Shown: positions 4,752-35,418 of the stretch, one piece after another | How positions within the stretch are numbered: the first letter of the stretch is position 1 | How the letters are laid out: each line of letters starts with the position of its first letter | Source of the DNA: a virus | Taxonomy: Duplodnaviria > Heunggongvirae > Uroviricota > Caudoviricetes | DNA: 35,651 nt | IMG/VR virus record: IMGVR_UViG_2654587746_000005 | Strand: one strand, 5' to 3' | Translations under genes and position numbers: made by a program | The notes under the pieces: generated by a model | What the model saw: only the letters and a program-made list of their open reading frames with translations | Databases searched by the model: none | Told to the model about the DNA's origin: nothing

Positions 4752-4808
4752 AAAAACGGCGGCAGAGCAGTCACGGAGTAAAACTGATACCGCCAAACGT
4801 CACTAACA
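4752..4808 (-). ncRNA. dicF: DicF small regulatory RNA with intrinsic terminator
   Basis: Minus-strand sequence GTGACGTTTGGCGGTATCAGTTTTACTCCGTGACTGCTCTGCCGCCGTTTTT matches recalled DicF (ftsZ-targeting sRNA). A GGCGG...CCGCC stem is followed by a T-run. It sits between the ydfA-like gene and dicB, as in Qin. Confidence 0.75.
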
Positions 4809-6656: not shown

Positions 6657-7161
6657 ACAGGCTCGTGAGGCTCTGGATGCCTGGATATGTCGACCAGGAA
6701 TGACACAGGAGCAGGCGACGATATTAATCACTGAAGCATTCTGGGCTTTGAAAGAGCGCCCGAACATCGATGTTCAGCGTGTCACATATGAAGGTGGCGC
6801 GGTTGATCAGCGAGCGCTTAGCGTTAATCGAGTGAAGATATTCGAACGCTGGAAGGCTATCGACACCAGGGATAAGCGTGAAAAGTTCACAGCGCTAGTG
6901 CCTGCAATTATGGAGGCTATCCGGATTAGTGATTTCAGGTTGTATCGTGAGATCAGTGATGGAAAAAGTATTACGTACATGATCGCCGGGTTAAATAAAG
7001 AATATGGCGATGTGGTGGAATCCGGACTGCTTTTTGCAGATCCTGCCGTTGTAGATCGTGAAACTGACGAACTTATAGAAAAAGCAATTGCTTTCAAGCT
7101 TGCGTATCGACAGCAATACCAACAAAAAGCTGGATGGAATTATGAGTCTTCTTTTTGCTGA
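6640..7161 (+). CDS. YdaT-like / CII-like phage regulatory protein (173 aa)
   Basis: ORF immediately after, and overlapping, the Cro-like gene. This position and the N-terminal pattern are typical of YdaT-family proteins; the family call is from recall and uncertain. Confidence 0.4.
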   Translation: MKITPEQAREALDAWICRPGMTQEQATILITEAFWALKERPNIDVQRVTYEGGAVDQRALSVNRVKIFERWKAIDTRDKREKFTALVPAIMEAIRISDFRLYREISDGKSITYMIAGLNKEYGDVVESGLLFADPAVVDRETDELIEKAIAFKLAYRQQYQQKAGWNYESSFC

Positions 7162-8107
7162 ACGCCCACTGGTTATAAACATGCAGCTGGCAATGAAAAT
7201 CGGCTTAAACGAAGCCATTGTTTTGCAACAACTGCACTACTGGTTGAGAGATACCAACTCCGGTATGGAATGTGATGGTGTTCGCTGGATTTATAACACA
7301 ACGGAACAATGGCTGGAACAGTTCCCATTCTGGTCAGAGTCAACGTTAAAGCGCGCGTTTGCAAGTCTGAAAACGCTGGGGCTTTTGCGTTGTGAAAAGC
7401 TCAATAAATCAAAGCGCGATATGACCAATTTCTACACGATCAACTATGGGAGCGAGCTTTTAGATGGTGGCAAATTGAACGAATCCATCGGTTCAAAATG
7501 CGCCGCTCCATCAGGTCAAAATGACACGATGGAAGAGGTCAAAATGAAACGCTCCATTGGTTCAAAACGATCCAATGTCATCGGGTCAAAATGGCCTGAT
7601 GATCTTACAGAGAATACAACAGAGATTACTACAGAGAATAAAAACACTTTTCGTCCGGAAGCTTCGCAACCGGACCCGCAGACGACTGAACAGGATTTTT
7701 TAACCTGGAACTCCGACGCGGTTGTGTTTAGTGCGAAAAAACGCCAGTGGGGTAGCAGGGAGGATTTGGCGTGTGCGCAGTGGATCTGGGGGCGGATCGT
7801 GGGTCTCTACGAACAGGCAGCCAGTGATGATGGCGAGATCATGCGACCAAAAGAGCCTAACTGGACTGCCTGGGCCAATGACGTGCGCACAATGCGGATG
7901 CTGGATGGCAGAAGCCACAGACAAATTTGCGAAATGTTTGGTCGGGTTCAGCGAGATCCATTCTGGGTAAAAAACATCATGAGCCCGTCAAAGCTCCGCG
8001 AAAAATGGGACGAACTGGTCATCCGCCTGGGACGTTCACCTGTACAGCGTTGTGTTAATCATATTTCTGAACCGGATACAGAAATTCCGCCTGGTTTCAG
8101 AGGATAA
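7142..8107 (+). CDS. Phage replication initiator / replisome organizer (O-like), ori embedded
   Basis: About 321 aa from the internal ATG (MSLLFAERPLVINMQLAMKIGLNEAIVLQQLHYW...), a typical replisome-organizer N-terminus. The gene contains DNA iterons that encode repeated IGSK peptides. Confidence 0.7.
   Translation: MSLLFAERPLVINMQLAMKIGLNEAIVLQQLHYWLRDTNSGMECDGVRWIYNTTEQWLEQFPFWSESTLKRAFASLKTLGLLRCEKLNKSKRDMTNFYTINYGSELLDGGKLNESIGSKCAAPSGQNDTMEEVKMKRSIGSKRSNVIGSKWPDDLTENTTEITTENKNTFRPEASQPDPQTTEQDFLTWNSDAVVFSAKKRQWGSREDLACAQWIWGRIVGLYEQAASDDGEIMRPKEPNWTAWANDVRTMRMLDGRSHRQICEMFGRVQRDPFWVKNIMSPSKLREKWDELVIRLGRSPVQRCVNHISEPDTEIPPGFRG
7485..7600 (+). repeat. Five direct iterons (consensus CAT-C-GGT(T)CAAAATG, period about 23 bp) followed by ACAGAGA(A/T)T repeats: putative phage origin of replication
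   Basis: Repeats read directly at about 7490, 7514, 7537, 7559 and 7583, inside the replication gene. This is analogous to lambda ori iterons inside gene O. Confidence 0.55.
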
Positions 8108-9634: not shown

Positions 9635-10074
9635 CTTGTTGAAATTAGAGGAAATCTTGCAGCCATGATATGGCTTAAAATAACGTTTGATTATTTTACC
9701 TGCTGTTTGTCCCTGGTTTAAAGTCGGTTGTCTGATTTGATTACGCGCAACTGACGCTTACGTATTGAAGTAACGAGCACGAAGACACATATTTATCAGT
9801 GCCTGTATACGTCAAGAGCAGGAGATTTATGTGCTGGTTCTCAAATGCACGCTGGCTATTGTGGCTGTAATGGCAATTTATTGTCTTGTTATTGTTCTTA
9901 TGGATCACCTTTCTGATTGATTTCATATTGGAGAGGTAACGGTAGTTAAGTAGAATGGCTGCGGGTGCTTGAGGCTATCTGCCTCGGGCATGAACACCAA
10001 CGGCAGATAGAGAAAAGCCCCAGTTAACATTACGCGTCCTGCAAGACGCTTAACATTAATCTGAGGCCAATTTC

Positions 10075-10287
10075 ATGCTAGACACATGTAGGTTAGCCTC
10101 TTACGTGCCGAAAGGCAAGGAGAAGCAGGCTATGAAGCAGCAAAAGGCGATGTTAATCGCCCTGATCGTCATCTGTTTAACCGTCATAGTGACGGCACTG
10201 GTAACGAGGAAAGACCTCTGCGAGGTACGAATCCGAACCGGCCAGACGGAGGTCGCTGTCTTCACAGCTTACGAACCTGAGGAGTAA
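10075..10287 (+). CDS. mok: Mok-like in-frame leader ORF of the hok locus
   Basis: 70-aa ORF that is an in-frame N-terminal extension of hok, as recalled for chromosomal mokC/hokC. Confidence 0.55.
   Translation: MLDTCRLASYVPKGKEKQAMKQQKAMLIALIVICLTVIVTALVTRKDLCEVRIRTGQTEVAVFTAYEPEE
10132..10287 (+). CDS. hok: Hok/Gef-family type I toxin (51 aa)
   Basis: MKQQKAMLIALIVICLTVIVTALVTRKDLCEVRIRTGQTEVAVFTAYEPEE matches recalled HokD/RelF. It is followed by an intrinsic terminator. Confidence 0.85.
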   Translation: MKQQKAMLIALIVICLTVIVTALVTRKDLCEVRIRTGQTEVAVFTAYEPEE

Positions 10288-17244: not shown

Positions 17245-17607
17245 ATTAATATTAAATCGGATTATTTTTAGCGCTGAATGTGAAATTTAAATAAAAAGGA
17301 CTCTTCCATGAGTCAAAATCCTTGAAATCTTAAGGGTAAGATAAAAGGTCATTAGACAGAATGACACGTTTTATTAATAAATAAAGCTATTGTTTCATTC
17401 GTGTGTTTTTCTTTACAAAAGTAATCCTTGCTATGGTTGGTTAATCATGCGTTAATGGTGTTCTGGTTTGTTACAAAATTATCTGAAGCAGTCATTGTTA
17501 TAATTTTATTATTTGTACCTCTTGAGATTTCCTTGTTGGTTTTTCTCTCTGATATTTTTTTTCGGACCATTCTGCCCAAGGGCTAACTTCTTCAAAAGGT
17601 AATAATG

Positions 17608-17820
17608 ATGTCTAACAAAATGACTGGTTTAGTGAAATGGTTTAACCCTGAAAAAGGTTTTGGTTTCATCACGCCGAAAGATGGTAGCAAAGATGTGTTT
17701 GTGCATTTCTCAGCTATTCAGAGCAACGATTTCAAAACGTTAACTGAGAATCAGGAAGTCGAATTTGGTATTGAGAACGGACCTAAAGGCCCTGCAGCTG
17801 TTCATGTAGTGGCACTTTGA
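17608..17820 (+). CDS. CspA-family cold-shock protein
   Basis: [23 protein letters not shown]...VHF... shows canonical RNP1/RNP2 cold-shock domain motifs. A long AT-rich 5' leader lies upstream. Confidence 0.9.
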
Positions 17821-18023
17821 GGTAGAAAATATTACAAACCATATTCACTTTAGATGCCCGTGTTGCCATGGTTCTCAGTATAGAACATCATCTTTTGATG
17901 TTTCTGACAGAAATCCTTTCGGGGCAAAATGTATCTTTTGTAAATCAATGATGATTACATTTGATAATATTTCACAATACTTAAATGTTAGCCATCTGTC
18001 GTTAGATTTAAGAAAGTGAAAAT

Positions 18024-18322: not shown

Positions 18323-18454
18323 TTTGATTCTAATGCATTGATAATAAATGATAATCATCTTTATCTGTTTGTGTGAAATTTAGCGAAAAACGCCGTAAAC
18401 CCTCGCCCAATGCGGGCGGGGATATAAGGCGAAAAGCCCGCAGGGCTTTAAAGA

Positions 18455-18880
18455 TCAATCAGGTGTTGACTGACTCTGAACGTAGGCTCTGAGCGTTTCA
18501 ATCGTTGCCCCTCCGGTGCTACAGACAAAGTACGATCTCGACCACAAAAGCCCCGTTTTACTCTGCATACGTAAATGCGCGTTCTGCTGGCGTAGCAAAC
18601 GTGATGATACCGATTTTAAATTATTGACCATCACACTGACCGCCAGTTTTGGCGGGTAGGCCACCAGCAGGTGTACATGGTCTGGCTCCCCGTCCATCTC
18701 AATAATTTCGCATTCAAGCTTTGCCGCAGCGGAGCCAAAAGCCTCACGCAACTGAGCGATCATCTGACTGTCGAATAGTTTGCGTCGATACTTTGTCGTA
18801 AAAATAAGGTGCACAACCAGCTTACTGACACTGTGTCGTTTGCGGAGAAATCCCGCCAGTAAATCATCATGATTACTCAA
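18455..18880 (-). CDS. tnpA: IS200/IS605 Y1 (HUH) transposase TnpA
   Basis: 141 aa with the HUH motif (HVHLLV) and a C-terminal catalytic Tyr region (RSYFVCSTGG). Size is typical. Confidence 0.85.
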   Translation of the reverse strand: MSNHDDLLAGFLRKRHSVSKLVVHLIFTTKYRRKLFDSQMIAQLREAFGSAAAKLECEIIEMDGEPDHVHLLVAYPPKLAVSVMVNNLKSVSSRLLRQQNAHLRMQSKTGLLWSRSYFVCSTGGATIETLRAYVQSQSTPD

Positions 18881-18936
18881 TTGATATATTCACCTAAAGT
18901 GTTAAAATAAAAGCATTATATCAATGAGCGCTGACT

Positions 18937-20106
18937 ATGTTAAGAGCAACAAAAGTACGCATCTACCCGACACCAGAACAGGCTGAATTTATCAACGCCC
19001 AGTTCGGTGCAGTGCGTTTTGCGTACAACAAAGCTCTGCATATCAAGAAACATTCTTACCAGCGGCACCGCGTAAATTTAAACCCGCGTAAAGACCTCAA
19101 ACCACTGCTTGCAGTGGCGAAGAAATCCCGCCGGTATGGATGGCTTAAAGAATATGATTCTATTGCGTTGCAGCAGGCGGTAATTAACCTCGACGTGGCT
19201 TTTTCTAACTTTTTCAATCCGAAACTGAAAGCAGGTAAACCTACCTTTAAAAGTAAACACGGCAGACAATCGAGCTATCATTGTGTTGGCATAAAAGTCC
19301 TTGATGGTGCGATAAAAATACCGAAAATCTTGCCGATTGAAGCGCGTTTACATCGTGAAATTACGGGAATGCTGAAAAGTATCACGTTGAGCCGCAGCGC
19401 AACCGGGAAATACTACGCGTCGTTACTCTGTGACGACGGGATGGAAGCGCCGGCAAAGCCCGCACTGATATCAAATGTGACAGGGCTGGATATGGGGCTG
19501 GCGCATTTTGTCATCAAATCGGACGGCAATAAAATTGCCAGTCCCCGCCACCTAATCAATGCAAGTCGCAACCTGCGCCGGAAGCAGAAAGCACTGTCCC
19601 GTAAGAAAAAAGGGAGCGCAAACAGGCGCAAAGCCAGAATACAACTTGCAGCCGTTCACGAACGGGTAGCCAGTGCCCGTGCCGATTTCCAGCACAAGTT
19701 ATCTCGCGCAATTGTTGACGAAAACCAAGCGGTAATTGTCGAGACATTGAAAACGGCAAATATGATGAAAAATCACCATCTGGCTCGTGCGATAGGCGAT
19801 GCTGGATGGTCTGGATTCATCACAAAACTGGAATACAAAGCAGCAGAGAAAGGTGTGCATCTGGTGAAACTGGATCAATGGTTCGCCAGTTCGAAAACCT
19901 GCCACTGCTGCGGTCACAAAATGTCGGAGATGCCATTACATAAGCGCATCTGGCAGTGTCCAGAGTGTGGAGTTGAACATGACCGCGATATCAACGCGGC
20001 GCTCAACATCAAACGCAAGGGCATACTGGAATTACAAGCGGCGGGACTCGTCGTTTCTGCCCATGGAGGCCAGCGTAAATCCGTCACACAGACGGTTGCG
20101 GCTTAA
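18937..20106 (+). CDS. tnpB: TnpB (OrfB) RuvC-like RNA-guided nuclease of IS605 family
   Basis: 389 aa with an N-terminal OrfB region, RuvC motifs and a C-terminal zinc finger (CHCCGHK...CPECGVEHDRDINAALNI). Confidence 0.85.
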   Translation: MLRATKVRIYPTPEQAEFINAQFGAVRFAYNKALHIKKHSYQRHRVNLNPRKDLKPLLAVAKKSRRYGWLKEYDSIALQQAVINLDVAFSNFFNPKLKAGKPTFKSKHGRQSSYHCVGIKVLDGAIKIPKILPIEARLHREITGMLKSITLSRSATGKYYASLLCDDGMEAPAKPALISNVTGLDMGLAHFVIKSDGNKIASPRHLINASRNLRRKQKALSRKKKGSANRRKARIQLAAVHERVASARADFQHKLSRAIVDENQAVIVETLKTANMMKNHHLARAIGDAGWSGFITKLEYKAAEKGVHLVKLDQWFASSKTCHCCGHKMSEMPLHKRIWQCPECGVEHDRDINAALNIKRKGILELQAAGLVVSAHGGQRKSVTQTVAA

Positions 20107-20257
20107 GAAGTGGGAAGCCTCGCCCGACAGGGCGGGGAGCAGTCACACCGTCGTATGTTGATTATTGCGATGTTTCATCTTATCTTTTATACGTTTGCTC
20201 CATATAATTGACACTACTGTGTACCAGGACAGTCATAACAGACTAAAAGAGGAAATG

Positions 20258-20726: not shown

Positions 20727-20933
20727 ATGCATAAAGATCAATACACTGATGCCCCCTCCCAGGAGCAGGTTCGTGTAAAAACTATGCTTAATAGCACCAT
20801 TTCGATGGGTTACCCGGATGTTGTAATTGCATGTATAGAACATCAAGTATCTCTGGAAGCATTCAGGGCAATTGAGGCCGCGTTAGTAAAGCACGATAAG
20901 AATACGAAGGATTATTCCCTGGTGGTTGACTGA
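20727..20933 (+). CDS. Conserved lambdoid right-arm small protein (68 aa) preceding cos
   Basis: Sequence (…[38 protein letters not shown]…YSLVVD) resembles the recalled small ORF near the right end of lambda. Function unknown. Confidence 0.5.
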
Positions 20934-21330: not shown

Positions 21331-21485
21331 TTGAAATTTTATTCGTCATCACCACTACTGTAATTGATTGATATTACAGTTGTTTTATTTTTATGGTGTC
21401 GATTCTGATTGTTTTTTGTTCATCACTAACACCGTTTGCCTAAAGTTGTTCGCAAGATGCATGTTTAAAACATTCTGGAGCGGGT

Positions 21486-21980
21486 ATGGATCGAGAGTTA
21501 AAAAATCTGACGCTGAATATCAGTCAACTGGCGGCATTGTCAGGTGTACATCGCCAGACTGCTGCGGCAAGGCTGCAAAATCTACCCGTTGCAGGGGGGC
21601 ATGAAAGCAACCTCAAGCTTTATCGGGTGGTTGATATTGTGTCGGCATTTCTGGCATTACCACCGCCGGTTGCAGAAGGCGAAATGGACGCGCATGAGCG
21701 CAAAGCCTGGTATCAGTCTGAACGTGAGCGTCTTAAGTTCGAACAGGAAACGGCACAACTCATTCCGGCCAGTGATGTCAGACGGGAGTTTGCCATCTGG
21801 GCAAAAGCGGTCGTGCAGGTGCTGGAGACATTACCGGATATTCTTGAACGTGACTGCGGTCTGCAGCCTGCCGCTGTGAGCCGTGTTCAGTCCATTATTG
21901 ATGATCTGCGCGATCAGATAGCCCTGCGGGTGACTGAAGCAGGTGCGGATGATGAGGAGGAATTACAGCAGGAGGAGTAA
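21486..21980 (+). CDS. Terminase small subunit (Nu1-like)
   Basis: 164-aa ORF immediately upstream of, and overlapping, the large terminase. N-terminal HTH-like segment (LNISQLAALSGVHRQTAAARL) and an acidic C-terminus. Confidence 0.7.
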   Translation: MDRELKNLTLNISQLAALSGVHRQTAAARLQNLPVAGGHESNLKLYRVVDIVSAFLALPPPVAEGEMDAHERKAWYQSERERLKFEQETAQLIPASDVRREFAIWAKAVVQVLETLPDILERDCGLQPAAVSRVQSIIDDLRDQIALRVTEAGADDEEELQQEE

Positions 21981-24082
21981 TGCTGAATCAGGAAACCGCA
22001 AAGGCAGCACGAACCGATTCAGGTTATATCCTTCGCGCACCGAGACGAATGCGGGTTGCTGATGCCGTTGCTCAGTATATGCGGGTGCCCATGGGGGCAG
22101 GGAACTCAGTCCCGTGGGATCCGCTGGTGGCACCGTATGTTATTGAGCCTATGAACTGCCTGGCCTCGCGTGAATACGACGCAGTGATATTTGTTGGCCC
22201 GGCACGAACCGGCAAGACTATCGGCCTGATTGACGGCTGGGTGATTTACAACGTGATTTGCGATCCTGCTGATATGCTGATCATTCAGATGACGGAGGAA
22301 AAAGCCCGCGAACACTCCAAAAAACGACTCGCCAGAACGTTTCGCGTCAGCCCGGAAGTGGTCAGTCGCCTGAGTCCGAACAAAAATGACAACAACGTTT
22401 ATGACAGAACATTCCTTGCTGGCAACTACCTGAAAATCGGCTGGCCGTCAGTCAATATCATGTCTTCATCAGATTATAAATGCGTGGCGCTGACGGATTA
22501 TGACCGTTTTCCGGAAGATATTGATGGTGAGGGGGATGCCTTCTCTCTTGCCTCAAAACGTACCACCACATTTATGTCCAGTGGTATGACGCTGGTGGAG
22601 AGTTCCCCCGGCAGGGATGTGAAGGATGTGAAATGGCGACGGACTTCACCGCATGAGGCTCCACCAACCACGGGGATCCTGTCGCTCTATAACCGTGGCG
22701 ATCGCCGTCGCTGGTACTGGCCCTGTCCACACTGTGGTGAGTATTTTCAGCCCTGCGGCGATGTGGTTGCTGGTTTCCGTGATATTGCCGATCCTGTGCT
22801 GGCAAGTGAGGCGGCTTATATTCAGTGTCCTTCCTGTTCAGGACGGATTTTGCCTGAACAAAAACGCGAGCTGAACGGACGTGGGGTCTGGTTACGGGAT
22901 AGTGAATCCATCAATGCAGATGGCAGTCGTTATGGTGATCCCCGGCGTTCACGTATTGCGTCATTCTGGATGGAGGGTCCGGCAGCTGCTTATCAGACAC
23001 TCTCGCAACTCGTTTACAAACTGCTTACTGCAGAACAGGAATACGAGACAACCGGAAGTGAAGAGACACTCAAGACGGTTATCAATACCGACTGGGGATT
23101 ACCTTATCTTCCCCGCGCCAGCATGGAGCAACGAAAAAGTGAATTGCTTGAGCAGCGGGCAGAGCCAGTTCCTTCCCGCAGTGTGCCGGATGGCGTTAAT
23201 TTCCTTGTGGCGACAGTGGATGTGCAGGCGGGACGTCATCGCCGTTTTGTGGTTCAGGTAACGGGCTATGGCAGCCGTGGCGAACGCTGGATTATTGATC
23301 GTTACAACATCACGCAGTCATTGCGCGGTGACAGCGACGGGGAGAGCCAGCGAATTGATCCGGCCAGCTATCCGGAAGACTGGGATGTCCTGCTGACGGA
23401 TGTTTTTCATAAAAGCTGGCCGCTGGCCTCCGATCCTTCTCAACAAATGCGACTGATGGCAATGGCGGTGGACTCCGGCGGTGAAGACGGGGTCACTGAT
23501 AATGCCTATAAATTCTGGCGTCGTTGCCGTCGTGATGGCCTTGGTAAACGTATTTACCTGTTTAAGGGCGACAGCATCCGGCGCGCAAAACTGATCACCC
23601 GTACATTCCCTGATAACACCGGACGAACGGGCCGACGGGCGCAGGCCGCAGGTGATGTACCGCTCTGGCTTCTTCAGACGGATGCCCTGAAAGACCGGGT
23701 GAATAACGCGTTATGGCGTGACTCGCCAGGTCCCGGCTATGTGCATTTCCCTGACTGGCTGGGGAGCTGGTTTTACGACGAACTGACGTATGAAGAGCGG
23801 AGCAGTGACGGGAAATGGAGTAAGCCGGGTCGCGGTGCCAACGAAGCTTTTGACCTGATGGTGTATGCCGAGGCTCTGGTCATTCTGCATGGATACGAAA
23901 AGATCCGCTGGCCGGATGCACCGGAGTGGGCGAGCCGGGAAACCTGGCTGGAGTGTGTCCCGGACAGTACCGAACCGTCACCCACACCGGAACCGGTATC
24001 CACGCCTGTTAAAAAACAAAAACGGAAGAAAACAGTAACTGACGATGTTAACCCCTGGCTGACTTCCGGAGGATGGTTATGA
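21980..24082 (+). CDS. Terminase large subunit (lambda gpA-like)
   Basis: 700 aa with a Walker A-like motif (VGPARTGKT), a zinc-binding CPHCGE motif as in lambda A, and a nuclease domain. Confidence 0.9.
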   Translation: MLNQETAKAARTDSGYILRAPRRMRVADAVAQYMRVPMGAGNSVPWDPLVAPYVIEPMNCLASREYDAVIFVGPARTGKTIGLIDGWVIYNVICDPADMLIIQMTEEKAREHSKKRLARTFRVSPEVVSRLSPNKNDNNVYDRTFLAGNYLKIGWPSVNIMSSSDYKCVALTDYDRFPEDIDGEGDAFSLASKRTTTFMSSGMTLVESSPGRDVKDVKWRRTSPHEAPPTTGILSLYNRGDRRRWYWPCPHCGEYFQPCGDVVAGFRDIADPVLASEAAYIQCPSCSGRILPEQKRELNGRGVWLRDSESINADGSRYGDPRRSRIASFWMEGPAAAYQTLSQLVYKLLTAEQEYETTGSEETLKTVINTDWGLPYLPRASMEQRKSELLEQRAEPVPSRSVPDGVNFLVATVDVQAGRHRRFVVQVTGYGSRGERWIIDRYNITQSLRGDSDGESQRIDPASYPEDWDVLLTDVFHKSWPLASDPSQQMRLMAMAVDSGGEDGVTDNAYKFWRRCRRDGLGKRIYLFKGDSIRRAKLITRTFPDNTGRTGRRAQAAGDVPLWLLQTDALKDRVNNALWRDSPGPGYVHFPDWLGSWFYDELTYEERSSDGKWSKPGRGANEAFDLMVYAEALVILHGYEKIRWPDAPEWASRETWLECVPDSTEPSPTPEPVSTPVKKQKRKKTVTDDVNPWLTSGGWL

Positions 24083-24291: not shown

Positions 24292-25799
24292 TGGCAATTC
24301 TTGATGATGTGATTGGCGTTTTTTCACCAGGATGGAAAGCGGCAAGGCTGCGTTCCCGAGCGGTGATCCAGGCTTATGAGGCCGTAAAAACGACGCGGAC
24401 ACACAAAGCCCGACGGGAGAACCGAACTGCCGACCAGTTAAGCCAGTACGGGGCCGTGTCGTTACGTGAGCAGGCCCGTTACCTTGATAACAACCACGAT
24501 CTGGTCATTGGTGTATTTGACAAGCTGGAAGAACGGGTGGTGGGGAAAAATGGGATTATTGTCGAGCCACATCCGGTATTACGCAATGGTGCCATTGCCC
24601 GTGACCTGGCAGCGGAGATACGTACCCGATGGAGTGAATGGTCTGTCAGTCCGGAAGTCACCGGGCAGTTTACCCGTCCGATGCTGGAACGTCTGATGCT
24701 GCGTACCTGGCTGCGCGATGGTGAGGTGTTTGCCCAGATGGTTTCCGGGCGCATAAACAGCCTGACGCCTTCTGCCGGTGTTCATTTCTGGCTGGAGGCG
24801 CTCGAGCCGGACTTTATTCCCATGACCAGTGATGAGAGCAACAGGCTGAATCAGGGCGTGTTTGTTGATGACTGGGGGCGTCCCGAAAAATATCTGGTGT
24901 ATAAAAGTCGTCCTGTATCCAGACGGCAGATGGAAACCAAAGAAGTGGATGCAGAGCGAATGCTGCATCTTAAATTTGTTCGCCGTCTGCACCAGATGCG
25001 CGGGACGTCTTTATTGTCCGGTGTGCTGATCCGCCTCAGCGCCCTGAAAGAGTATGAAGATTCTGAGCTGACTGCAGCAAGGATCGCCGCTGCTCTGGGG
25101 ATGTACATCCGGAAAGGCGACGGACAGAGCTATGAAACGGATGGTAATGACAGCAAGGAGAACGAACGCGAGCTTACCATTCAGCCAGGCATTATTTACG
25201 ACGATCTGAAACCCGGCGAAGAAATCGGAATGGTGAAGTCGGATCGTCCCAATCCTAACCTTGAAACTTTTCGTAATGGTCAGTTGCGTGCCGTGGCGGC
25301 GGGCAGTCGTCTGAGTTTTTCCAGTACGGCACGCAACTATAACGGCACTTACAGCGCCCAGCGTCAGGAACTGGTTGAGTCTACTGATGGCTACCTGATC
25401 CTGCAGGACTGGTTTATTGGTGCCGTCACCCGCCCGATGTATCGTGCCTGGCTGAAACAGGCTGTGGCATCCGGTGTTATCAGGCTACCCCGCGATCTTG
25501 ACCGTTCTTCACTGTATACCGCGGTGTATTCCGGACCAGTGATGCCGTGGATTGACCCTGTTAAGGAGGCTGAGGCCTGGAAAATCCAGATTCGTGGTGG
25601 AGCGGCGACAGAATCAGACTGGGTACGTGCTGGTGGTCGTAATCCGGATGATGTCAAACGTCGGCGCAAGGCCGAAATTGATGAAAACCGCAAGCTGGAT
25701 CTGGTATTTGATACCGATCCGGCCAGTGATAAAGGAGGCAGCAGTGCCGCAACGAAACGACAGGAGCCGCAGCACACCGACGACCAGTCCGAAGAATAA
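24291..25799 (+). CDS. B: Portal protein (lambda gpB-like)
   Basis: 502-aa ORF in the lambda gene order, with size and position typical of a portal. Confidence 0.85.
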   Translation: MAILDDVIGVFSPGWKAARLRSRAVIQAYEAVKTTRTHKARRENRTADQLSQYGAVSLREQARYLDNNHDLVIGVFDKLEERVVGKNGIIVEPHPVLRNGAIARDLAAEIRTRWSEWSVSPEVTGQFTRPMLERLMLRTWLRDGEVFAQMVSGRINSLTPSAGVHFWLEALEPDFIPMTSDESNRLNQGVFVDDWGRPEKYLVYKSRPVSRRQMETKEVDAERMLHLKFVRRLHQMRGTSLLSGVLIRLSALKEYEDSELTAARIAAALGMYIRKGDGQSYETDGNDSKENERELTIQPGIIYDDLKPGEEIGMVKSDRPNPNLETFRNGQLRAVAAGSRLSFSSTARNYNGTYSAQRQELVESTDGYLILQDWFIGAVTRPMYRAWLKQAVASGVIRLPRDLDRSSLYTAVYSGPVMPWIDPVKEAEAWKIQIRGGAATESDWVRAGGRNPDDVKRRRKAEIDENRKLDLVFDTDPASDKGGSSAATKRQEPQHTDDQSEE

Positions 25800-25812
25800 T
25801 TCCTGGTTCAGG

Positions 25813-27771
25813 ATGCAGGCTGGTCACCAGAGTGACGCGGATATTTATATTTATGACGAGATTGGTTTCTGGGGTGTTACAGCGAAGCAGTTTATCAGTG
25901 ATCTGAATGCACTGGGCGATATCACCCACATTAATCTCCATATTAATTCACCGGGTGGCGATGTCTTTGAAGGCATCGCCATTTTTAATGCGCTGAAAAC
26001 ACATGGTGCGTCCATTACCGTTTATGTCGACGGTGTGGCGGCGTCAATGGCGTCGGTCATTGCGATGGTGGGAAACCCGGTCATTATGCCGGAAAACACT
26101 TTCATGATGATTCATAAACCATTTGGCTTTACGGGCGGTGATGCGGAGGACATGCGCACCTATGCCGACCTGCTCGATAAAGTTGAGGCGGTTCTGTTAC
26201 CCGCTTATGCACAGAAAACCGGGAAAACCACCGATGAAATTGCTGCCATGCTGGCGGATGAGACCTGGATGTCCGGTGCCGAATGTCTGGCACATGGATT
26301 TGCTGATCAGGTAACGCCAGCCGTTAAGGCAATGGCATGTATTCAGTCAAAACGTACAGAGGAATTTAAAAAGATGCCGGAATCCATTCGAAACATGATT
26401 ACTCCGCCACGCAACAGTGCTCCACGCGTACAGGATGATGAACCTGCAGCCTCCCGGACGCCAGTGCAGGCAGCCGCACCCGTGGTGGATGAAAACAGTA
26501 TCCGTGCGCAGGTACTGGCAGAGCAAAAAGCGCGTGTAAACGGTATTAATGATCTGTTTGCCATGTTTGGCGGGCGTTATCAGACGCTGCAGGCTCAGTG
26601 TCTTGCCGATCCTGAATGTTCGCTGGAGCAGGCCCGCGAAAAGCTGTTGAACGAGATGGGGCGCGAGTCCACGCCATCCAATAAAAATACCCCGGCTCAT
26701 ATTTATGCCGGTAACGGTAATTTTGTGGGGGACGGGATCCGCCAGGCGCTGATGGCGCGTGCCGGATTTGAAAAAACCGAACGTGATAATGTCTACAACG
26801 GGATGACCCTGCGTGAATATGCCCGTATGTCACTGACTGAACGGGGTATTGGGGTTTCCAGTTATAACCCGATGCAGATGGTCGGTGCGGCGTTCACACA
26901 CAGTACGTCTGACTTCGGTAATATTCTGCTGGATGTTGCGAACAAAGCCATTCTGCAGGGCTGGGAAGATGCTCCTGAAACCTATGAACAGTGGACGCGG
27001 AAAGGTCAGTTGTCTGATTTTAAAATTGCCCATCGTGTGGGTATGGGGGGCTTCAGTGCTCTGCGTCAGGTGCGTGAAGGGGCGGAATATAAATACGTCA
27101 CCACCGGAGATAAACAGGCCACTATTGCACTGGCGACCTATGGCGAGCTGTTCAGTATCACCCGTCAGGCCATTATCAATGATGATCTGAATATGCTGAC
27201 CGATGTCCCGATGAAGCTGGGCCGTGCGGCGAAATCCACCATTGCCGATCTGGTTTATGCCATTCTGACGTCTAACCCGAAAATCTCCACAGATAATGTA
27301 AGTCTGTTCGATAAAGCGAAACATGCAAACGTACTGGAGAGCGCTGCAATGGACGTGGCATCGCTGGATAAAGCCCGCCAGTTGATGCGCGTTCAGAAAG
27401 AGGGGGAGCGTCATCTGAATATTCGTCCTGCGTTCGTACTGGTACCGACGGCGATGGAGTCTGTTGCTAACCAGGTCATTCGCTCCTCAAGTGTCAAGGG
27501 GGCTGACATTAACGCCGGTATTATTAACCCGGTGAAAGATTTTGCGACCGTTATTGCAGAGCCTCGTCTTGATGATAACAGCCAGACCACCTTCTACCTG
27601 GCTGCGTCCAAAGGCTCCGATACGATTGAAGTGGCTTATCTCAACGGTGTGGATACGCCATATATTGATCAGATGGAGGGCTTCAGTGTGGATGGCGTGA
27701 CAACGAAAGTGCGTATTGACGCCGGTGTCGCGCCAGTTGATCACCGCGGTCTGGTGAAATGTACGGCGTAA
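25813..27771 (+). CDS. Fused prohead protease (ClpP/S49-like) - scaffold - HK97-fold major capsid protein
   Basis: The N-terminus has ClpP-like motifs (INSPGGDVFEG...GVAASMASVIAMVG), followed by a coiled-coil linker and a C-terminal capsid domain. This matches the Gifsy-2-type fused head gene (recalled). Confidence 0.85.
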   Translation: MQAGHQSDADIYIYDEIGFWGVTAKQFISDLNALGDITHINLHINSPGGDVFEGIAIFNALKTHGASITVYVDGVAASMASVIAMVGNPVIMPENTFMMIHKPFGFTGGDAEDMRTYADLLDKVEAVLLPAYAQKTGKTTDEIAAMLADETWMSGAECLAHGFADQVTPAVKAMACIQSKRTEEFKKMPESIRNMITPPRNSAPRVQDDEPAASRTPVQAAAPVVDENSIRAQVLAEQKARVNGINDLFAMFGGRYQTLQAQCLADPECSLEQAREKLLNEMGRESTPSNKNTPAHIYAGNGNFVGDGIRQALMARAGFEKTERDNVYNGMTLREYARMSLTERGIGVSSYNPMQMVGAAFTHSTSDFGNILLDVANKAILQGWEDAPETYEQWTRKGQLSDFKIAHRVGMGGFSALRQVREGAEYKYVTTGDKQATIALATYGELFSITRQAIINDDLNMLTDVPMKLGRAAKSTIADLVYAILTSNPKISTDNVSLFDKAKHANVLESAAMDVASLDKARQLMRVQKEGERHLNIRPAFVLVPTAMESVANQVIRSSSVKGADINAGIINPVKDFATVIAEPRLDDNSQTTFYLAASKGSDTIEVAYLNGVDTPYIDQMEGFSVDGVTTKVRIDAGVAPVDHRGLVKCTA

Positions 27772-29039: not shown

Positions 29040-29437
29040 ACCGACATACACAAATCCGCCAGGCCGTACTGGCACGCCTTCGGGAACAGTGTGGAGACAG
29101 CGCCACGTTTTTTGACGGGCTTCCGGCATTTATTGATGCGCAGGAACTGCCTGCCGTGGCGGTGTGGCTGAGTGATGCTCAGTACACCGGAAAAATGACG
29201 GATGAAGATGACTGGCAGGCTGTTCTGCATATTGCTGTCTTCATCCGGGCACAGGCACCGGATTCAGAGCTGGATATGTGGATGGAGAGCACCATTTTCC
29301 CGGCCCTGAATGATATACCGGCACTTTCCGGACTCATCGACACCCTGATCCCTCTCGGTTTTAACTATCAACGTGATAATGAGATGGCCACCTGGGCGAT
29401 GGCGGAAATCACGTACCAGATCACGTACACGAATTAA
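29036..29437 (+). CDS. U: Tail terminator U (lambda gpU-like)
   Basis: ATFFDG.PA..D...LPAVAV.L....YTG and PDSELD.WMES.I.P....IPALS.LI match recalled lambda U. ATGA overlap with Z. Confidence 0.85.
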
Positions 29438-29448
29438 AGGAGGTGGCA

Positions 29449-30189
29449 ATGACCACACCAAATCCACTGGCAAAAACGAAAGGTGCGGGAACGACGTTCT
29501 GGATGTACACCGGCAAGGGCGATGCGTTTGCGAACCCTTTATCGGACACTGACTGGCTGCGTCTTGCGATGGTGAAGGATCTGCAACCTGGCGAAATGAC
29601 CGCTGATGCAGAAGATGACTCTTATCTCGATGATGAAGATGCAGACTGGAAAACGACAACCCAGGGGCAGAAATCCGTCGGTGATACTTCGGCGACGCTG
29701 GCCTGGCGTCCGGGTGACAGCGGGCAGAAAAAACTGGTTCAGTTGTTCGACTCCGGTGAAGTCTGCGCGTTTCGTATCAAATATCCCAACGGCACTGTTG
29801 ATGTTTTCCGTGGCTGGCTGAGCTCACTGGGTAAAACCATTGCCTCAAAAGACGTGATGACCCGCACAGTGAAAATCAGCGGTGTGGGGCGTCCGTATCT
29901 GGCAGAGGAAGGCACTGAAACAGTGAGCTGTCCGGGCTGCAGAGAATTGAATATCTGGCGTTTGTTCAGCAGCGAACGGCAAAGTTTGATGCCGAAGAGG
30001 GAGAACTGCCGGAGGCTGAACGACAGATTGCTTTTCTGCGGATGGGGATGGATATCAATGCCTGGCTGGTTTCCCGCTCACTGTGGAATGCGGAACAGTC
30101 TCAGGATGTTGAGACGCTTTGCGCATCCGTTATTACAACATGGTCGTATGATGCCCTGGGAGCGGGGGCGGAGATGGTTCTGTCGCTGA
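29449..30189 (+). CDS. V: Major tail protein V homologue (N-terminal domain intact to about 29915; the ORF then continues out of frame through G-homologous DNA)
   Basis: Residues 1 to about 156 align with recalled lambda V (…[12 protein letters not shown]…[10 protein letters not shown]…RTVK…VGRP…). The last about 90 residues are Trp/Arg-rich with no similarity, and the same DNA in another frame encodes a G homologue. Confidence 0.75.
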
Positions 30190-30257
30190 GCGGTATGGGA
30201 GCCATTGAGAATGCCGGGGATTTGGAGCATGAGGTGCTGACGCCGGAAAAGTCCTGA
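29919..30257 (+). pseudogene. G: Tail assembly chaperone G homologue lacking its 5' end and start codon
   Basis: The frame opens just after a TGA at 29916..29918 and reads [13 protein letters not shown]…ITTW…LSGMG…, matching lambda G from about residue 17 onward. There is no ATG/GTG/TTG before 30042. Confidence 0.55.
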
Positions 30258-30595
30258 CGCGGGAAATGCAGTTTGTCATGCGGCTTGCCCGGGAGTTCCG
30301 GCGGGCAGACTGGCGGCGGATGCTGTCGGAAATGTCGGCCACTGAGCTTGGTGAGTGGGGCGATTATTTCCGGATGCAGAGCTTCAGTGATGTGTGGATG
30401 GATGCGCAGTTTGCCTCGCTGAAGGCATTGATCGTGAGAATGGTGTCCGGTAGCAGTGATGCTGCGGTGGCTGATTTCAGCCTTTTACCGGAAGAGAACG
30501 GGATACCGGAGCGAACGGACGAAGAACTGATGCATCTTGGGGAAGGTATTTCCGGAGGTGTGCGTTATGGACCAGATAGCCAACCTGGTCATTGA
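30233..30595 (+). CDS. T: T-portion of the tail assembly chaperone G-T (-1 frame relative to G), normally expressed by programmed frameshift
   Basis: The -1 frame opens at 30233, overlapping the last 8 codons of G, and the A-rich heptamer GGAAAAG (30245..30251) sits two codons before the G stop. This is the lambda G/G-T architecture. Confidence 0.5.
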   Translation, partial: GADAGKVLTREMQFVMRLAREFRRADWRRMLSEMSATELGEWGDYFRMQSFSDVWMDAQFASLKALIVRMVSGSSDAAVADFSLLPEENGIPERTDEELMHLGEGISGGVRYGPDSQPGH

Positions 30596-33500
30596 TTTGG
30601 GGATTGATGCGGCAGAGTTTAAAAATGAAATTCCCCGTATCAAAAACCTTCTGAATGGTGCAGCCAGCGATGCAGAACGGTCTTCTGCCCGTATGCAGCG
30701 TTTTATGGAGCGTCAGACTCAGGCCGCCCGGCAGACAATGCAGGCGGCTTCTTCGGCTGCAACAGCCGCATCCGTCCATGCGCAGACGGTGGAGAAGAGC
30801 GCACAGGCTCATGAACGCATGGCCCGCGAGGTGGAGCAAACCCGCCAGCGTATGGAGGCACTGAGCCAGAAAATGCGCGAGGAACAGGCGCAGGCCATGG
30901 CTCTGGCGGAGGCTCAGGATAAAGCGGCTGCCGCGTTTTATCGTCAGATTGACAGTGTGAAACAGGCCAGTGCGGGGCTGCAGGAATTACAGCGTATTCA
31001 GCAGCAGATCCGACAGGCCAGAAACAGTGGCGGGATTGGTCAGCAGGATTATCTGGCGCTGATTTCTGAGGTTACGGCGAAAACCCGTGTTCTTACGCAG
31101 GCTGAGGCAGAGGCTACCCGACAGAAAGTGGCGTTTATCCGTCAGCTTAAAGAGCAGGCAACCCGCCAGAATCTTTCCTCTTCTGAGTTGCTTCGTGCTA
31201 AGGCTGCCCAGCTGGGGGTAAGCAGTGCTGCAGAAGTGTATATCCGCAAAATGGAGCAGGCAGGAAAAGCCACGCATTCGCTGGGTCTGAAAAGTGCAGC
31301 GGCCCGCCAGGAGATAGGCGTTCTGATAGGTGAACTGGCTCGCGGCAATTTAGGTGCGCTGAGGGGATCCGGGATAACGCTGGCTAACCGTGCCGGATGG
31401 ATAGACACACTGATGTCACCGAAAGGCATGATGCTGGGCTGGGTTATTGGCGGTATTGCCGCGGCCGTCTATGGTCTGGGTAAAGCCTGGTATGATGGTC
31501 AGAAGGAGGGGGAAGAATTTAACCGCCAGTTGTCGCTGACGGGGCATTATGCCGGAGTCACTGCCGGGCAGCTGTGGACGCTCAGTCGTGCTATTTCCGG
31601 GAATGGTATTACGCAACATGCTGCAGCCGGTGCGCTGGCTCAGGTGGTGGGGAGTGGTGCATTTCGTGGAAACGATATCGGTATGGTGGCGAGAGCTGCC
31701 GCACAGATGGAGCGATCGGTTGGCCAGTCGGTCGGCGATACCATAAATCAGTTTAAGCGGCTGAAGGATGATCCTGTAAATGCCGCGAAGGCTCTGGACA
31801 ATGAGCTGCATTTTCTTACTGCCACTCAGCTTGAGCAGATACGCGTCCTTGGGGAACAGGGGCGGTCCAGTGATGCGGTACGGATAGCCATGTCTGCACT
31901 GGCAGAGGAAACCGGTCGGCGTACTGCGGATATTGATAATAACCTCAATGCGCTGGGCAGTACGCTGAAGTATCTGTCTGATTTATGGAGTCGTTTCTGG
32001 GATGCGGCCATGAATATTGGTCGTGAAGACTCGCTGGATGAACAGATTTCCGCTTTACAGGAGAAAGTGTCGCGGGCGAAAAGACTCCCCTGGACGGCAT
32101 CATCTTCTCAGGTTGAGTACGATCAGCAGCGTCTTAACGAGCTTCAGGAGAAAAAACGCCAGAAGGATTTGCAGGATGCAAAAGAGCAGGCAGAGCGGAA
32201 TTATCAGGAGCAACAGAAACGCCGTAATGCTGAAAATGCTGCACTGAACCGGATGAATGAAACGGAAGCAGCACGACATCAGCGTGAAATTGCGCGTATT
32301 AATGCCATGCAGTACGCCGATCAGGCTGTCAGGGATGCGGCGATACAACGTGAAAATGAACGTTACGAGAAAGCCCTGGCATCCGGTAAGAAAAAAACAC
32401 GCGAACCCCGTAATGATGAGGCCACCCGGTTATTGCTGCAGTACAGTCAGCAACAGGCACAGGTGGAAGGACAGATTGCTGCTGCCAGACAGTCAGCAGG
32501 CATTGCCACGGAAAGGATGACAGAAGCGCATAAACAGCTTCTGGCTCTGCAGCAGCGCATCAGCGACCTGGACGGGAAAAAACTGACGGCAGATGAAAAG
32601 AGTGTGCTGGCCCGTAAAGATGAACTGATTCAGGCACTGACGCTGCTGGATGTAAAACAGCAGGAGCTTCAGAAACAGACGGCACTCAACGAGCTGAAGA
32701 AAAAAACAATTCAGCTGACCAGTCAACTGGCTGAAGAAGAGCGCGCTCAGCGTCAGCAACATGACCTGGATATCGCCACGGTGGGTATGGGTGATCAGCA
32801 GCGGCAGCGATATCAGGTACAACTGAGTCTTCGCCAGAAATACCAGCAACAGCTGGAGCAGTTGAGGCGGGATAGTGAGCAGAAAGGAACATATAACACG
32901 GATGACTACAGAAAGGCCGAGCAGGCGCTGACGGAGAGCCTGAACCGACAACTGAATGAGAATCGCCGTTACTGGCAACAGCTTGAAGTTGTGCAGGGTA
33001 ACTGGAAAAACGGAGTCCTGCGTGCATTTCAGGATTTTACCGTGGATGCAGATAATACGGCAGGAACAGCAGAACAGGTGTTCTCGTCAGCCTTCAGCAA
33101 CATGGGAAATGGCCTGGCAACTTTTGTCACTACCGGCAAACTCAATTTCAAATCCTTCACCTCTTCTGTGCTGTCAGATATGGCGAAAATCCTGGCGCAG
33201 GCAACCATGATGAAATCGATAAAAGGGATTGGCAGTGTACTGGGATTTGATCTCAGCAGCCTTTCCCTGAATGCCAATGGGGGGATTTATCAGTCTGCTG
33301 ATTTGAGTCGTTACAGTGGCACGGTGGTTAACCGTCCGACGTTTTTTGCTTTTGCAAAAGGCGCGGGTGTGATGGGGGAAGCGGGACCTGAAGCCATTCT
33401 GCCTCTGCGTCGTGGTGCTGACGGTAAGCTGGGGGTTGTGGCGGATATTGGTGGTTCAGGTATGGCGATGTTTGCCCCGCAGTACAACATCGAGATCAAT

Positions 33501-33632
33501 AACGATGGCACGAACGGGCAGATAGGTCCGGCTGCCCTGAAGGTGGTTTATGACCTTGGGAAAAAAGCGGCAGCGGACTTTATGCAACAGCAGGCCCGTG
33601 ATGGTGGTCGGTTAAGTGGAGCATATCGGTAA
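30567..33632 (+). CDS. H: Tail tape measure protein (lambda gpH-like)
   Basis: 1021 aa, highly alpha-helical with Ala/Gln/Glu/Arg-rich coiled coil, and a Gly-rich C-terminal region. Lambda gene order. RBS GGAGGTG. Confidence 0.9.
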   Translation: MDQIANLVIDLGIDAAEFKNEIPRIKNLLNGAASDAERSSARMQRFMERQTQAARQTMQAASSAATAASVHAQTVEKSAQAHERMAREVEQTRQRMEALSQKMREEQAQAMALAEAQDKAAAAFYRQIDSVKQASAGLQELQRIQQQIRQARNSGGIGQQDYLALISEVTAKTRVLTQAEAEATRQKVAFIRQLKEQATRQNLSSSELLRAKAAQLGVSSAAEVYIRKMEQAGKATHSLGLKSAAARQEIGVLIGELARGNLGALRGSGITLANRAGWIDTLMSPKGMMLGWVIGGIAAAVYGLGKAWYDGQKEGEEFNRQLSLTGHYAGVTAGQLWTLSRAISGNGITQHAAAGALAQVVGSGAFRGNDIGMVARAAAQMERSVGQSVGDTINQFKRLKDDPVNAAKALDNELHFLTATQLEQIRVLGEQGRSSDAVRIAMSALAEETGRRTADIDNNLNALGSTLKYLSDLWSRFWDAAMNIGREDSLDEQISALQEKVSRAKRLPWTASSSQVEYDQQRLNELQEKKRQKDLQDAKEQAERNYQEQQKRRNAENAALNRMNETEAARHQREIARINAMQYADQAVRDAAIQRENERYEKALASGKKKTREPRNDEATRLLLQYSQQQAQVEGQIAAARQSAGIATERMTEAHKQLLALQQRISDLDGKKLTADEKSVLARKDELIQALTLLDVKQQELQKQTALNELKKKTIQLTSQLAEEERAQRQQHDLDIATVGMGDQQRQRYQVQLSLRQKYQQQLEQLRRDSEQKGTYNTDDYRKAEQALTESLNRQLNENRRYWQQLEVVQGNWKNGVLRAFQDFTVDADNTAGTAEQVFSSAFSNMGNGLATFVTTGKLNFKSFTSSVLSDMAKILAQATMMKSIKGIGSVLGFDLSSLSLNANGGIYQSADLSRYSGTVVNRPTFFAFAKGAGVMGEAGPEAILPLRRGADGKLGVVADIGGSGMAMFAPQYNIEINNDGTNGQIGPAALKVVYDLGKKAAADFMQQQARDGGRLSGAYR

Positions 33633-33970: not shown

Positions 33971-34669
33971 ATGCAGGATATTCCACAGGAAACACATCAT
34001 GAGACGACACGCCTCACTCAGTCAGCCCAGGTGGTGCTCTGGGAAATCGATCTGACAGAGGTCGGTGGTGAACGTTATTTTTTCTGTAATGAGCAGAACA
34101 AAAAAGGTGAGCCGGTTACCTGGCAGGGGCGGCAGTATCAGGCATACCCCATTCAGGGGACGGGATTTGAACTGAATGGCAAGGGCAGTGCTGCCCGTCC
34201 GACACTGACGGTTTCTAACCTGCACGGCATGGTCACCGGGATGGCGGAAGACCTGCAGAGTCTGGTCGGCGGAACGGTGGTCAGGCGTAAGGTTTACGCC
34301 CGTTTTCTGGATGCGGTGAACTTCGTCAACGGAAACAGCGACGCCGATCCGGAGCAGGAGGTGATCAGCCGCTGGCGCATCGAGCAGTGCAGCGAACTGA
34401 GTGCGGTCAGTGCCTCCTTTGTACTGTCCACACCGACGGAAACGGATGGTGCCGTTTTTCCGGGGCGCATCATGCTGGCTAATACCTGCACCTGGACCTA
34501 TCGCGGTGATGAGTGCGGTTATCACGGTCCGGCTGTCGCGGATGAATATGATCAGCCGACGTCCGATATCACGAAGGATAAATGCAGCAAATGCCTGAAT
34601 GGCTGTAAGTTTCGCAATAACGTCGGCAACTTTGGCGGCTTCTTTTCCATTAACAAACTTTCGCAGTAA
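33971..34669 (+). CDS. L: Minor tail protein L (lambda gpL-like) with C-terminal Cys cluster
   Basis: 232 aa. Cys motif CTWTYRGDECGY…CSKCLNGC, as in the Fe-S-binding gpL. Confidence 0.9.
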   Translation: MQDIPQETHHETTRLTQSAQVVLWEIDLTEVGGERYFFCNEQNKKGEPVTWQGRQYQAYPIQGTGFELNGKGSAARPTLTVSNLHGMVTGMAEDLQSLVGGTVVRRKVYARFLDAVNFVNGNSDADPEQEVISRWRIEQCSELSAVSASFVLSTPTETDGAVFPGRIMLANTCTWTYRGDECGYHGPAVADEYDQPTSDITKDKCSKCLNGCKFRNNVGNFGGFFSINKLSQ

Positions 34670-34674
34670 ATCCC

Positions 34675-35418
34675 ATGACAGAGACAGAATCAGCGATTCT
34701 GGCGCACGCCCGGCGATGTGCGCCAGCGGAGTCGTGCGGCTTCGTGGTGAGAACGCCGGAAGGGGAAAGATATTTTCCCTGCGTGAATATCTCCGGTGAG
34801 TCGGAGGCGTATTTCCGGATGTCGCCGGAGGACTGGCTGCGGGCAGAGATGCAGGGTGAGATTGTGGCGCTGGTCCACAGCCACCCCGGTGGTCTGCCCT
34901 GGCTGAGTGAGGCCGACCGGCGGCTGCAGGTGCAGAGTGATTTGCCGTGGTGGCTGGTCTGCCGGGGGGCGATTCATAAGTTCCGCTGTGTGCCGCATCT
35001 CACCGGACGGCGCTTTGAGCACGGGGTGACGGACTGTTACACGCTGTTCCGGGATGCTTATCATCTGGCGGGGATTGAGATGCCGGATTTTCATCGCGAG
35101 GATGACTGGTGGCGTCACGGTCAGAATCTCTATCTGGATAATCTGGAGGCCACAGGGCTGTATCAGGTGCCGTTGTCATCAGCACAACCGGGCGATGTGC
35201 TGCTGTGCTGTTTTGGTTCATCGGTGCCGAATCATGCCGCCATTTACTGTGGTGATGGCGAGCTGCTGCACCATATTCCTGAACAACTGAGCAAACGTGA
35301 GAGGTATACCGACAAATGGCAGCGACGCACACACTCCCTCTGGCGTCACCAGGCATGGCACGCATCTGCCTTTACGGGGATTTACAACGATTTGGCCGCC
35401 GCATCGATCTGCGTGTGA
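34675..35418 (+). CDS. K: Tail assembly protein K (JAB/MPN + NlpC/P60 domains)
   Basis: JAMM-like HSHP motif (ALVHSHPGG) and an NlpC/P60-type Cys/His region (GVTDCYTLF…HAAIY). Lambda K position. Confidence 0.85.
   Translation: MTETESAILAHARRCAPAESCGFVVRTPEGERYFPCVNISGESEAYFRMSPEDWLRAEMQGEIVALVHSHPGGLPWLSEADRRLQVQSDLPWWLVCRGAIHKFRCVPHLTGRRFEHGVTDCYTLFRDAYHLAGIEMPDFHREDDWWRHGQNLYLDNLEATGLYQVPLSSAQPGDVLLCCFGSSVPNHAAIYCGDGELLHHIPEQLSKRERYTDKWQRRTHSLWRHQAWHASAFTGIYNDLAAASICV

Follow-up and report, generated by a model that had tools for sequence, protein, structure and literature searches.

The heads and tails of phage lambda are assembled separately and then joined. In siphophages, tail assembly needs both gpG and gpGT: the tape measure is bound through the G domain, and the major tail protein is brought in by the T domain (PMC4493119, PMC3296357). 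In phage TP901-1, knocking out G left capsids together with aggregates presumed to consist of tape measure protein; knocking out T left capsids only, tails being absent (PMC4493119, PMC3296357). In lambda, tails still form when the C-terminal domain of the major tail protein V is removed, with ~100-fold lower activity (PMC8718954).

The locus analysed here is a lambda-type V-G-T-H tail module lying in a Qin-site lambdoid prophage, within a stretch of DNA of 35,651 nt, hereafter called the window. Its closest described relatives are the prophage of E. coli NT1F31 and the phages Ayreon, vB_EcoS-569R4, mEp460, cdtI, and phi458, whose U-V-G-T-H DNA is 97.5-100% identical to that of the window and agrees with it in gene order, G/T overlap, and frameshift region. 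They retain 381-382 bp, holding the Big_2 domain of V, a hairpin between V and G, and the start of G, that the window lacks. Lambda shares with the window the Pfam family of the V tube domain (52% identical overall), its G is 32% identical, and its T lies in the -1 frame, the shift site being equally placed with respect to the G stop. Unlike in the window, however, lambda V and G are separate and complete. The lambda V-G spacer is 15 nt long and without a hairpin, as against 60 nt with a hairpin in the intact relatives.

The cryptic Qin prophage of E. coli K-12 has the same left-arm content as the window. As far as is known, the head and tail genes are gone from K-12 Qin, whereas in the window the head module is complete and the tail module carries one lesion. 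Spontaneous deletions in E. coli, such as those that Albertini et al. reportedly found in lacI in 1982, occur between short direct repeats and are explained by a slipped-strand model. As with the perfect 8-nt repeat of the window, the endpoints of those deletions fall in a direct repeat of which one copy is kept, and a few hundred bp are lost; there is no difference in kind, the target here being a prophage tail operon. Below, we describe a 382-base deletion that, judging from the reading frames, would almost certainly keep a lambda-like E. coli prophage, intact in other respects, from producing tails.

A Qin-site lambdoid prophage

Identity between the left arm of the window (1-21333) and the prophage of E. 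coli strain 700462, in which V and G are both intact, was 99.6-99.9%. That prophage adjoins rspAB/ynf, that is, the Qin locus, and its integrase abuts the rspAB-ynf chromosomal flank. The window itself begins at the integrase, and its placement beside the Qin flank was read from the strain 700462 prophage. The left arm contains dicB, DicF, ydfD, hokD/sok, rem, ydfU, essD, rrrQ, rzpQ, cspI, and gnsB, which are the cargo and regulatory genes by which a Qin-site lambdoid prophage was recognized. Three RNAs were found complete with Rfam, namely, the DicF sRNA on the minus strand (4757-4808) and, on the plus strand, the sok antitoxin RNA adjoining hokD (9963-10137) and a cspA-type thermoregulator leader 5' of cspI (17450-17866). 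DicF, sok, and the cspI leader are typical Qin RNA cargo.

Some stretches departed from the strain 700462 prophage. In the replication region, the ORF at 7142-8104, which encodes a hypothetical protein, showed a change of ~70 nt in the length of an internal repeat, at 7523-7540; its protein was 91.9% identical to the 700462 counterpart, as compared with 99-100% for its neighbours. Around a small terminase-like gene (DUF1441, 21486-21980), the region 21333-22079 had no match to the 700462 prophage and showed only 86.5% protein identity to NT1F31. Here, the Qin-type left arm meets the head-tail module in a mosaic joint.

The V and G reading frames

The ORF called a "phage tail protein" runs from 29449 to 30189 on the plus strand (246 aa, stop TGA 30187-30189), and the mechanical ORF list places its start two codons earlier, at GTG 29443. 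Alignment with lambda V and with the closest intact homologue showed that codons 1-160 are the authentic N-terminal domain of a major tail (tube) protein, identical over residues 1-160 to the intact relative. The Pfam family Phage_TTP_12 (PF16461) was complete in this ORF (aa 18-152, profile 1-135 of 135, E = 2e-66). Codons 161-246, in contrast, are G DNA translated out of frame. They encode 16 Arg, 6 Trp, and 6 Cys, and the alignments found no similarity between them and either lambda V or the closest intact homologue. The Ig-like Big_2 domain, which Pfam located at 161-239 in V of the intact relative, had no Pfam match in the fused ORF. The 246-aa call is a pseudogene fusion. An earlier note, made by a model from the letters, had described V as lambda-like only at its N-terminus and then running into about 90 nonsense codons; the likeness indeed extends through residue 160, and the nonsense part counts 86 codons.

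What remains of G, the tail assembly chaperone gene, lies at 29922-30257 on the plus strand and comprises codons 18-128 and the stop, its protein ending in TPEKS*. It was 100% identical to the intact G of NT1F31 and sits in a frame one base back from (-1 to) that of V. Its similarity to Phage_TAC_2, the family of lambda gpG, started at profile position 18 in Pfam, and BLASTP aligned it with lambda gpG from residue 18. The G frame is closed on the upstream side by a TGA at 29916-29918, which reading of the sequence showed to be formed by V codons (AC TGA A) and which lies directly upstream of the junction described below. Thus, the G homologue does begin right after an in-frame TGA and without a start codon, as had been claimed in the earlier note. 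No complete G ORF with its own start was present between the tail protein and tape measure genes.

We looked for other ways in which G might be translated. No canonical start (ATG, GTG, or TTG) was found in the G frame before the ATG at 30042, codon 42 of the remnant, which would yield only 71 of the 128 G residues. Just past the junction, near-cognate codons occur at 29928 and 29937 (CTG) and at 29946 (ATT). All these candidates, near-cognate or late, have weak Shine-Dalgarno matches and were rejected as G starts. A frameshift from V into G was rejected as well, the V frame having no X XXY YYZ heptamer. G is without a usable start, and gpG is probably not made; weak initiation at CTG 29928/29937 or ATT 29946 is possible, as far as the codons themselves can tell.

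Downstream, the T reading frame (Phage_tail_T by Pfam, plus strand) is open from 30233 to 30595, with an annotated ATG at 30266, and the G stop at 30257 falls within it. Its frame is -1 to that of G, and the overlap, at the 3' end of G, includes a putative slippery site. From the overlap of the two frames (30233-30257) and the parallel with lambda, the -1 shift probably takes place at CCG GAA AAG (30244-30252, plus strand), which is unchanged relative to functional relatives. The likely shift site in this phage group reads G GAA AAG, as in the window, and that of lambda G GGA AAG; at the former, the P-site Glu codon would re-pair with GGA via a middle-position mismatch or wobble. Because T is normally made only as the G-T fusion, its expression hangs on translation of G. 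The gene of the tape measure protein H, client of the absent G/GT chaperones, is full length (1021 aa, 30567-33632, plus strand).

The deletion and its junction

A three-way alignment of window positions 29100-30900 with NT1F31 and phage Ayreon contained a single gap, of 382 bp. Over 1,801 nt, this gap was the sole difference between the window and E. coli NT1F31, with zero substitutions. The gap apart, the window was also nearly identical to Ayreon, a plaque-forming phage, across U-V-G-T-H. The alignment of the V-G-T region that the earlier note had proposed thus yielded one clean gap, V and G being separate in the intact relatives. A deletion had been claimed from the C-terminal region of V to the start of G, and this is what the alignment showed; its size had been put at about 300 bp, which was too low.

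In the intact relatives, the gap is bounded by an 8-nt direct repeat, CAGTGAGC, copies of which stand at 822-829 and 1204-1211 of the intact sequence L001; their spacing, 382, equals the length of the gap. The window retains a single copy, located by alignment and repeat scan at 29921-29928 on the plus strand, and continues 3' of it with the right-hand, G-side sequence. Such an arrangement, with the repeat at both parental endpoints and one copy kept, is the classic mark of deletions that occur between short direct repeats. Another 8-mer common to both sides, CCGGGCTG, is found 4 nt beyond CAGTGAGC with a spacing of 381. Repeats of 8 bases are frequent by chance here (10 families in 901 nt), and given such chance repeats, what is informative is the exact coincidence of the deletion endpoints with one 8-nt repeat pair. 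A homology of 8 nt is far under the length that RecA-dependent recombination needs. From the signature of the junction and general knowledge, the deletion would have arisen by replication slippage or another RecA-independent short-homology route.

The content of the lost segment was read from the NT1F31 and Ayreon annotations, Pfam, and a terminator scan. It comprises V codons 161-247, which encode the Big_2 Ig-like domain, and the V stop; the 60-nt V-G spacer; and, at the 5' end of G, its ribosome-binding site, its ATG, and codons 1-17 (MFLKQGTFNYEKQSVVL). The spacer contains a strong terminator-like hairpin (GCCCCGG-TTAT-CCGGGGC, then TTTTTT), which is annotated as a terminator in Ayreon and which the scan placed at 1103-1143 of L001; it is absent from the window, where its equivalent position is near 29928. 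In the intact relatives, this hairpin may lower transcription of G, T, and H relative to V, and the deletion takes it out. The Ig-like domain, the hairpin, and the G start make up the additional 381-382 bp that all close relatives, the plaque-forming phages Ayreon, mEp460, cdtI, and phi458 among them, have at precisely this position, in keeping with the earlier suggestion that the tail module is likely defective.

Occurrence of the junction

The window coincides at 100% identity with the terminal 35,651 nt of contig JWKJ01000021.1 in NCBI assembly GCA_000812725.1, and the two have the same end. When 153 billion indexed gene positions were searched, the 246-aa fusion protein turned up in exact form on only four contigs, that is, the JWKJ contig under two sample listings and the Logan assemblies of ERR1609506 and ERR1622039. 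The two Logan contigs, matching the window along 13,288 and 6,227 nt, differed from it by a single SNP, found in ERR1609506 at window position 32627. Because of this SNP, the ERR1609506 data are not simply the same as the window data. With three or more read sets yielding the junction on assembly, an isolated assembly error is improbable; moreover, a homology of 8 nt cannot mislead a k-mer assembler, which makes an artefact very unlikely. To our knowledge, k-mer assemblers do not join sequences across 8 nt of homology without spanning reads. Both Logan contigs end at window position 34207, in L, and the NCBI contig ends at 35651, in I; the left ends of the Logan contigs are at 20920 and 27981. 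These contig ends suggest that other prophages in the same genomes share head and tail stretches.

None of 5,426 complete E. coli genomes and none of 50,697 phage records contained a 36-nt sequence spanning the junction, and searches of GTDB representative genomes and JGI metagenomes for a 38-nt junction pattern gave no match. The search itself worked, as a control 36-mer ~30 nt upstream of the junction matched 1,278 genomes. By megablast, 1,841 of the 5,426 complete genomes matched at least 80% of 29400-30600. The best of these E. coli matches were 99.8% identical and spanned, in two pieces, 1,583 bp as compared with 1,201 bp in the window. Seventeen phage records, including Ayreon, vB_EcoS-569R4, mEp460, cdtI, phi458, and Tritos, were 97.5-99.5% identical and carried an extra 377-382 bp (381-382 in most). 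Among the phage records, no functional phage with the fused V/G arrangement was found. A literature search for JWKJ, ERR1609506, ERR1622039, and GCA_000812725.1 found no publication. Going by these searches, the junction allele seems confined to one narrow lineage. Taken with the perfect identity of the flanks to an intact relative, its narrow distribution suggests that the deletion happened recently.

The rest of the prophage

To assess the other genes, we compared 48 reference proteins from strains 700462 and NT1F31 with the window by tblastn. Besides V and G, the 46 genes compared were full length, I being cut by the contig end. The head module was complete and the tail module had the one lesion. 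A second lesion, in K, was considered and rejected: the gene caller reported 199 aa, but K is intact, with an ORF of the full 247 aa at 34675-35418. One fusion ORF of 675 aa (25744-27771) encodes both the ClpP-like prohead protease and the major capsid protein, as annotated in relatives; the mechanical ORF list gives it 739 aa from an upstream TTG.

The IS605-family insertion reported in the earlier note was identified as ISEc46 (IS200/IS605 family, 18384-20146, plus strand), with tnpA at 18455-18880 on the minus strand and tnpB/InsQ at 18937-20106 on the plus strand. It sits in the ynfN-gnsB spacer and is a second lineage-private lesion, this one intergenic. The copy was 100% identical to copies elsewhere in E. 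coli; no complete genome among the matches listed had ISEc46 at the ynfN-gnsB site, the best ones covering the IS and not the flanks. The element belongs to the late-operon region, with the lysis cassette on one side and the terminase genes on the other, and polar effects are possible.

The earlier picture of a decaying cryptic prophage that retains intact cargo and lysis genes was right about those genes and overstated the decay, given 46 full-length genes and an insertion that is intergenic. The element looks like a recently tail-disabled, nearly complete prophage rather than an old decayed remnant.

Discussion

The whole of these observations is very probably explained by a recent spontaneous 382-bp deletion between 8-nt repeats that disabled the tail module. 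As to which part of the lesion matters, the lambda V truncation mutants, ascribed in PMC8718954 to work of 2010, are instructive. They are cut at the domain boundary (residue ~157-160) and keep the tube domain whole, like the V fusion of the window, and they form tails; yet they keep G, whereas in the window the deletion extends into G and V gains a missense tail of 86 residues. Because loss of the V Ig-like domain alone leaves tails forming, the disabling element is the loss of G and G-T. Judged by these mutants, damage confined to V might be tolerated, so that the argument for a tail defect hinges on G being lost. If gpG is absent, gpGT would be absent too, T being produced only by the G-T frameshift. 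The tape measure protein H would then be left without its chaperones and V would not be recruited. On induction, the cell would be expected to lyse and release heads that are filled with DNA but have no functional tails, unless tails or chaperones are supplied by another prophage.

That such a supply exists is the alternative that survives best, although we consider it rather unlikely: the tail-defective prophage would still spread by means of the tails, or the G/GT chaperones, of a co-resident lambdoid prophage. As a matter of fact, its head, packaging, lysis, and remaining tail genes are all full length, up to six related V-G-T loci occur per E. coli genome, and the contig breaks at 34207 and 35651 suggest a similar second tail module in the same strains. 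However, this helper prophage is a putative one, and a rescue of this kind leaves the lesion itself undisputed. The lesion might also be something other than passive decay: the lineage might keep a head-competent, tail-less prophage spreading with a helper, or the V fusion might act as a dominant-negative against the tails of related phages, both of which strike us as very unlikely.

We also wondered whether the arrangement might be a functional variant, in which G is made from a non-canonical or internal start, or by a frameshift from the V frame, and the tail module works. This we hold to be highly improbable. The G frame is -1 to V, so a -1 shift would enter G, near-cognate codons are at hand just past the junction, and the V Ig-like domain is, according to PMC8718954, dispensable for lambda tail formation. 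But the V frame offers no slippery heptamer, a good Shine-Dalgarno sequence is absent, and the first ATG comes too late for more than a little over half of G. Furthermore, the arrangement occurred in none of the 1,278 genomes with this V allele and in no phage record, and flanks that are 100% identical to an intact relative indicate a fresh lesion, not an evolved design. Hardly credible, finally, is the idea that assembly or sequencing produced a false junction and that V and G are intact in the real genome, since, even if the source is a draft assembly, with the window at the end of contig JWKJ01000021.1 and contigs stopping in tail genes in a way that suggests related repeats able to confuse an assembler, the identical junction was assembled independently from ERR1609506 and ERR1622039, and the SNP at 32627 sets one of these read sets apart from the window data. 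Thus, neither of the findings that would have counted against the deletion reading of the earlier note, a functional phage with the fused arrangement or reads with separate V and G, was obtained.

A recent deletion disabling the tail module is, in this prophage, a case of ordinary prophage inactivation; the biology is already known, and neither a new mechanism nor a new family is involved. For annotation, it means that V is a pseudogene fusion, that G is missing, and that the "T" ORF is not expressible in the normal way. The prophage is to be scored as tail-defective despite its near-complete look, and completeness predictors would probably miss the lesion. It provides a clean, datable case in which one short-repeat deletion turns an inducible lambdoid prophage defective, with the lysis and cargo genes (dicB/DicF, hokD/sok, cspI, gnsB, and lipocalin) remaining intact.
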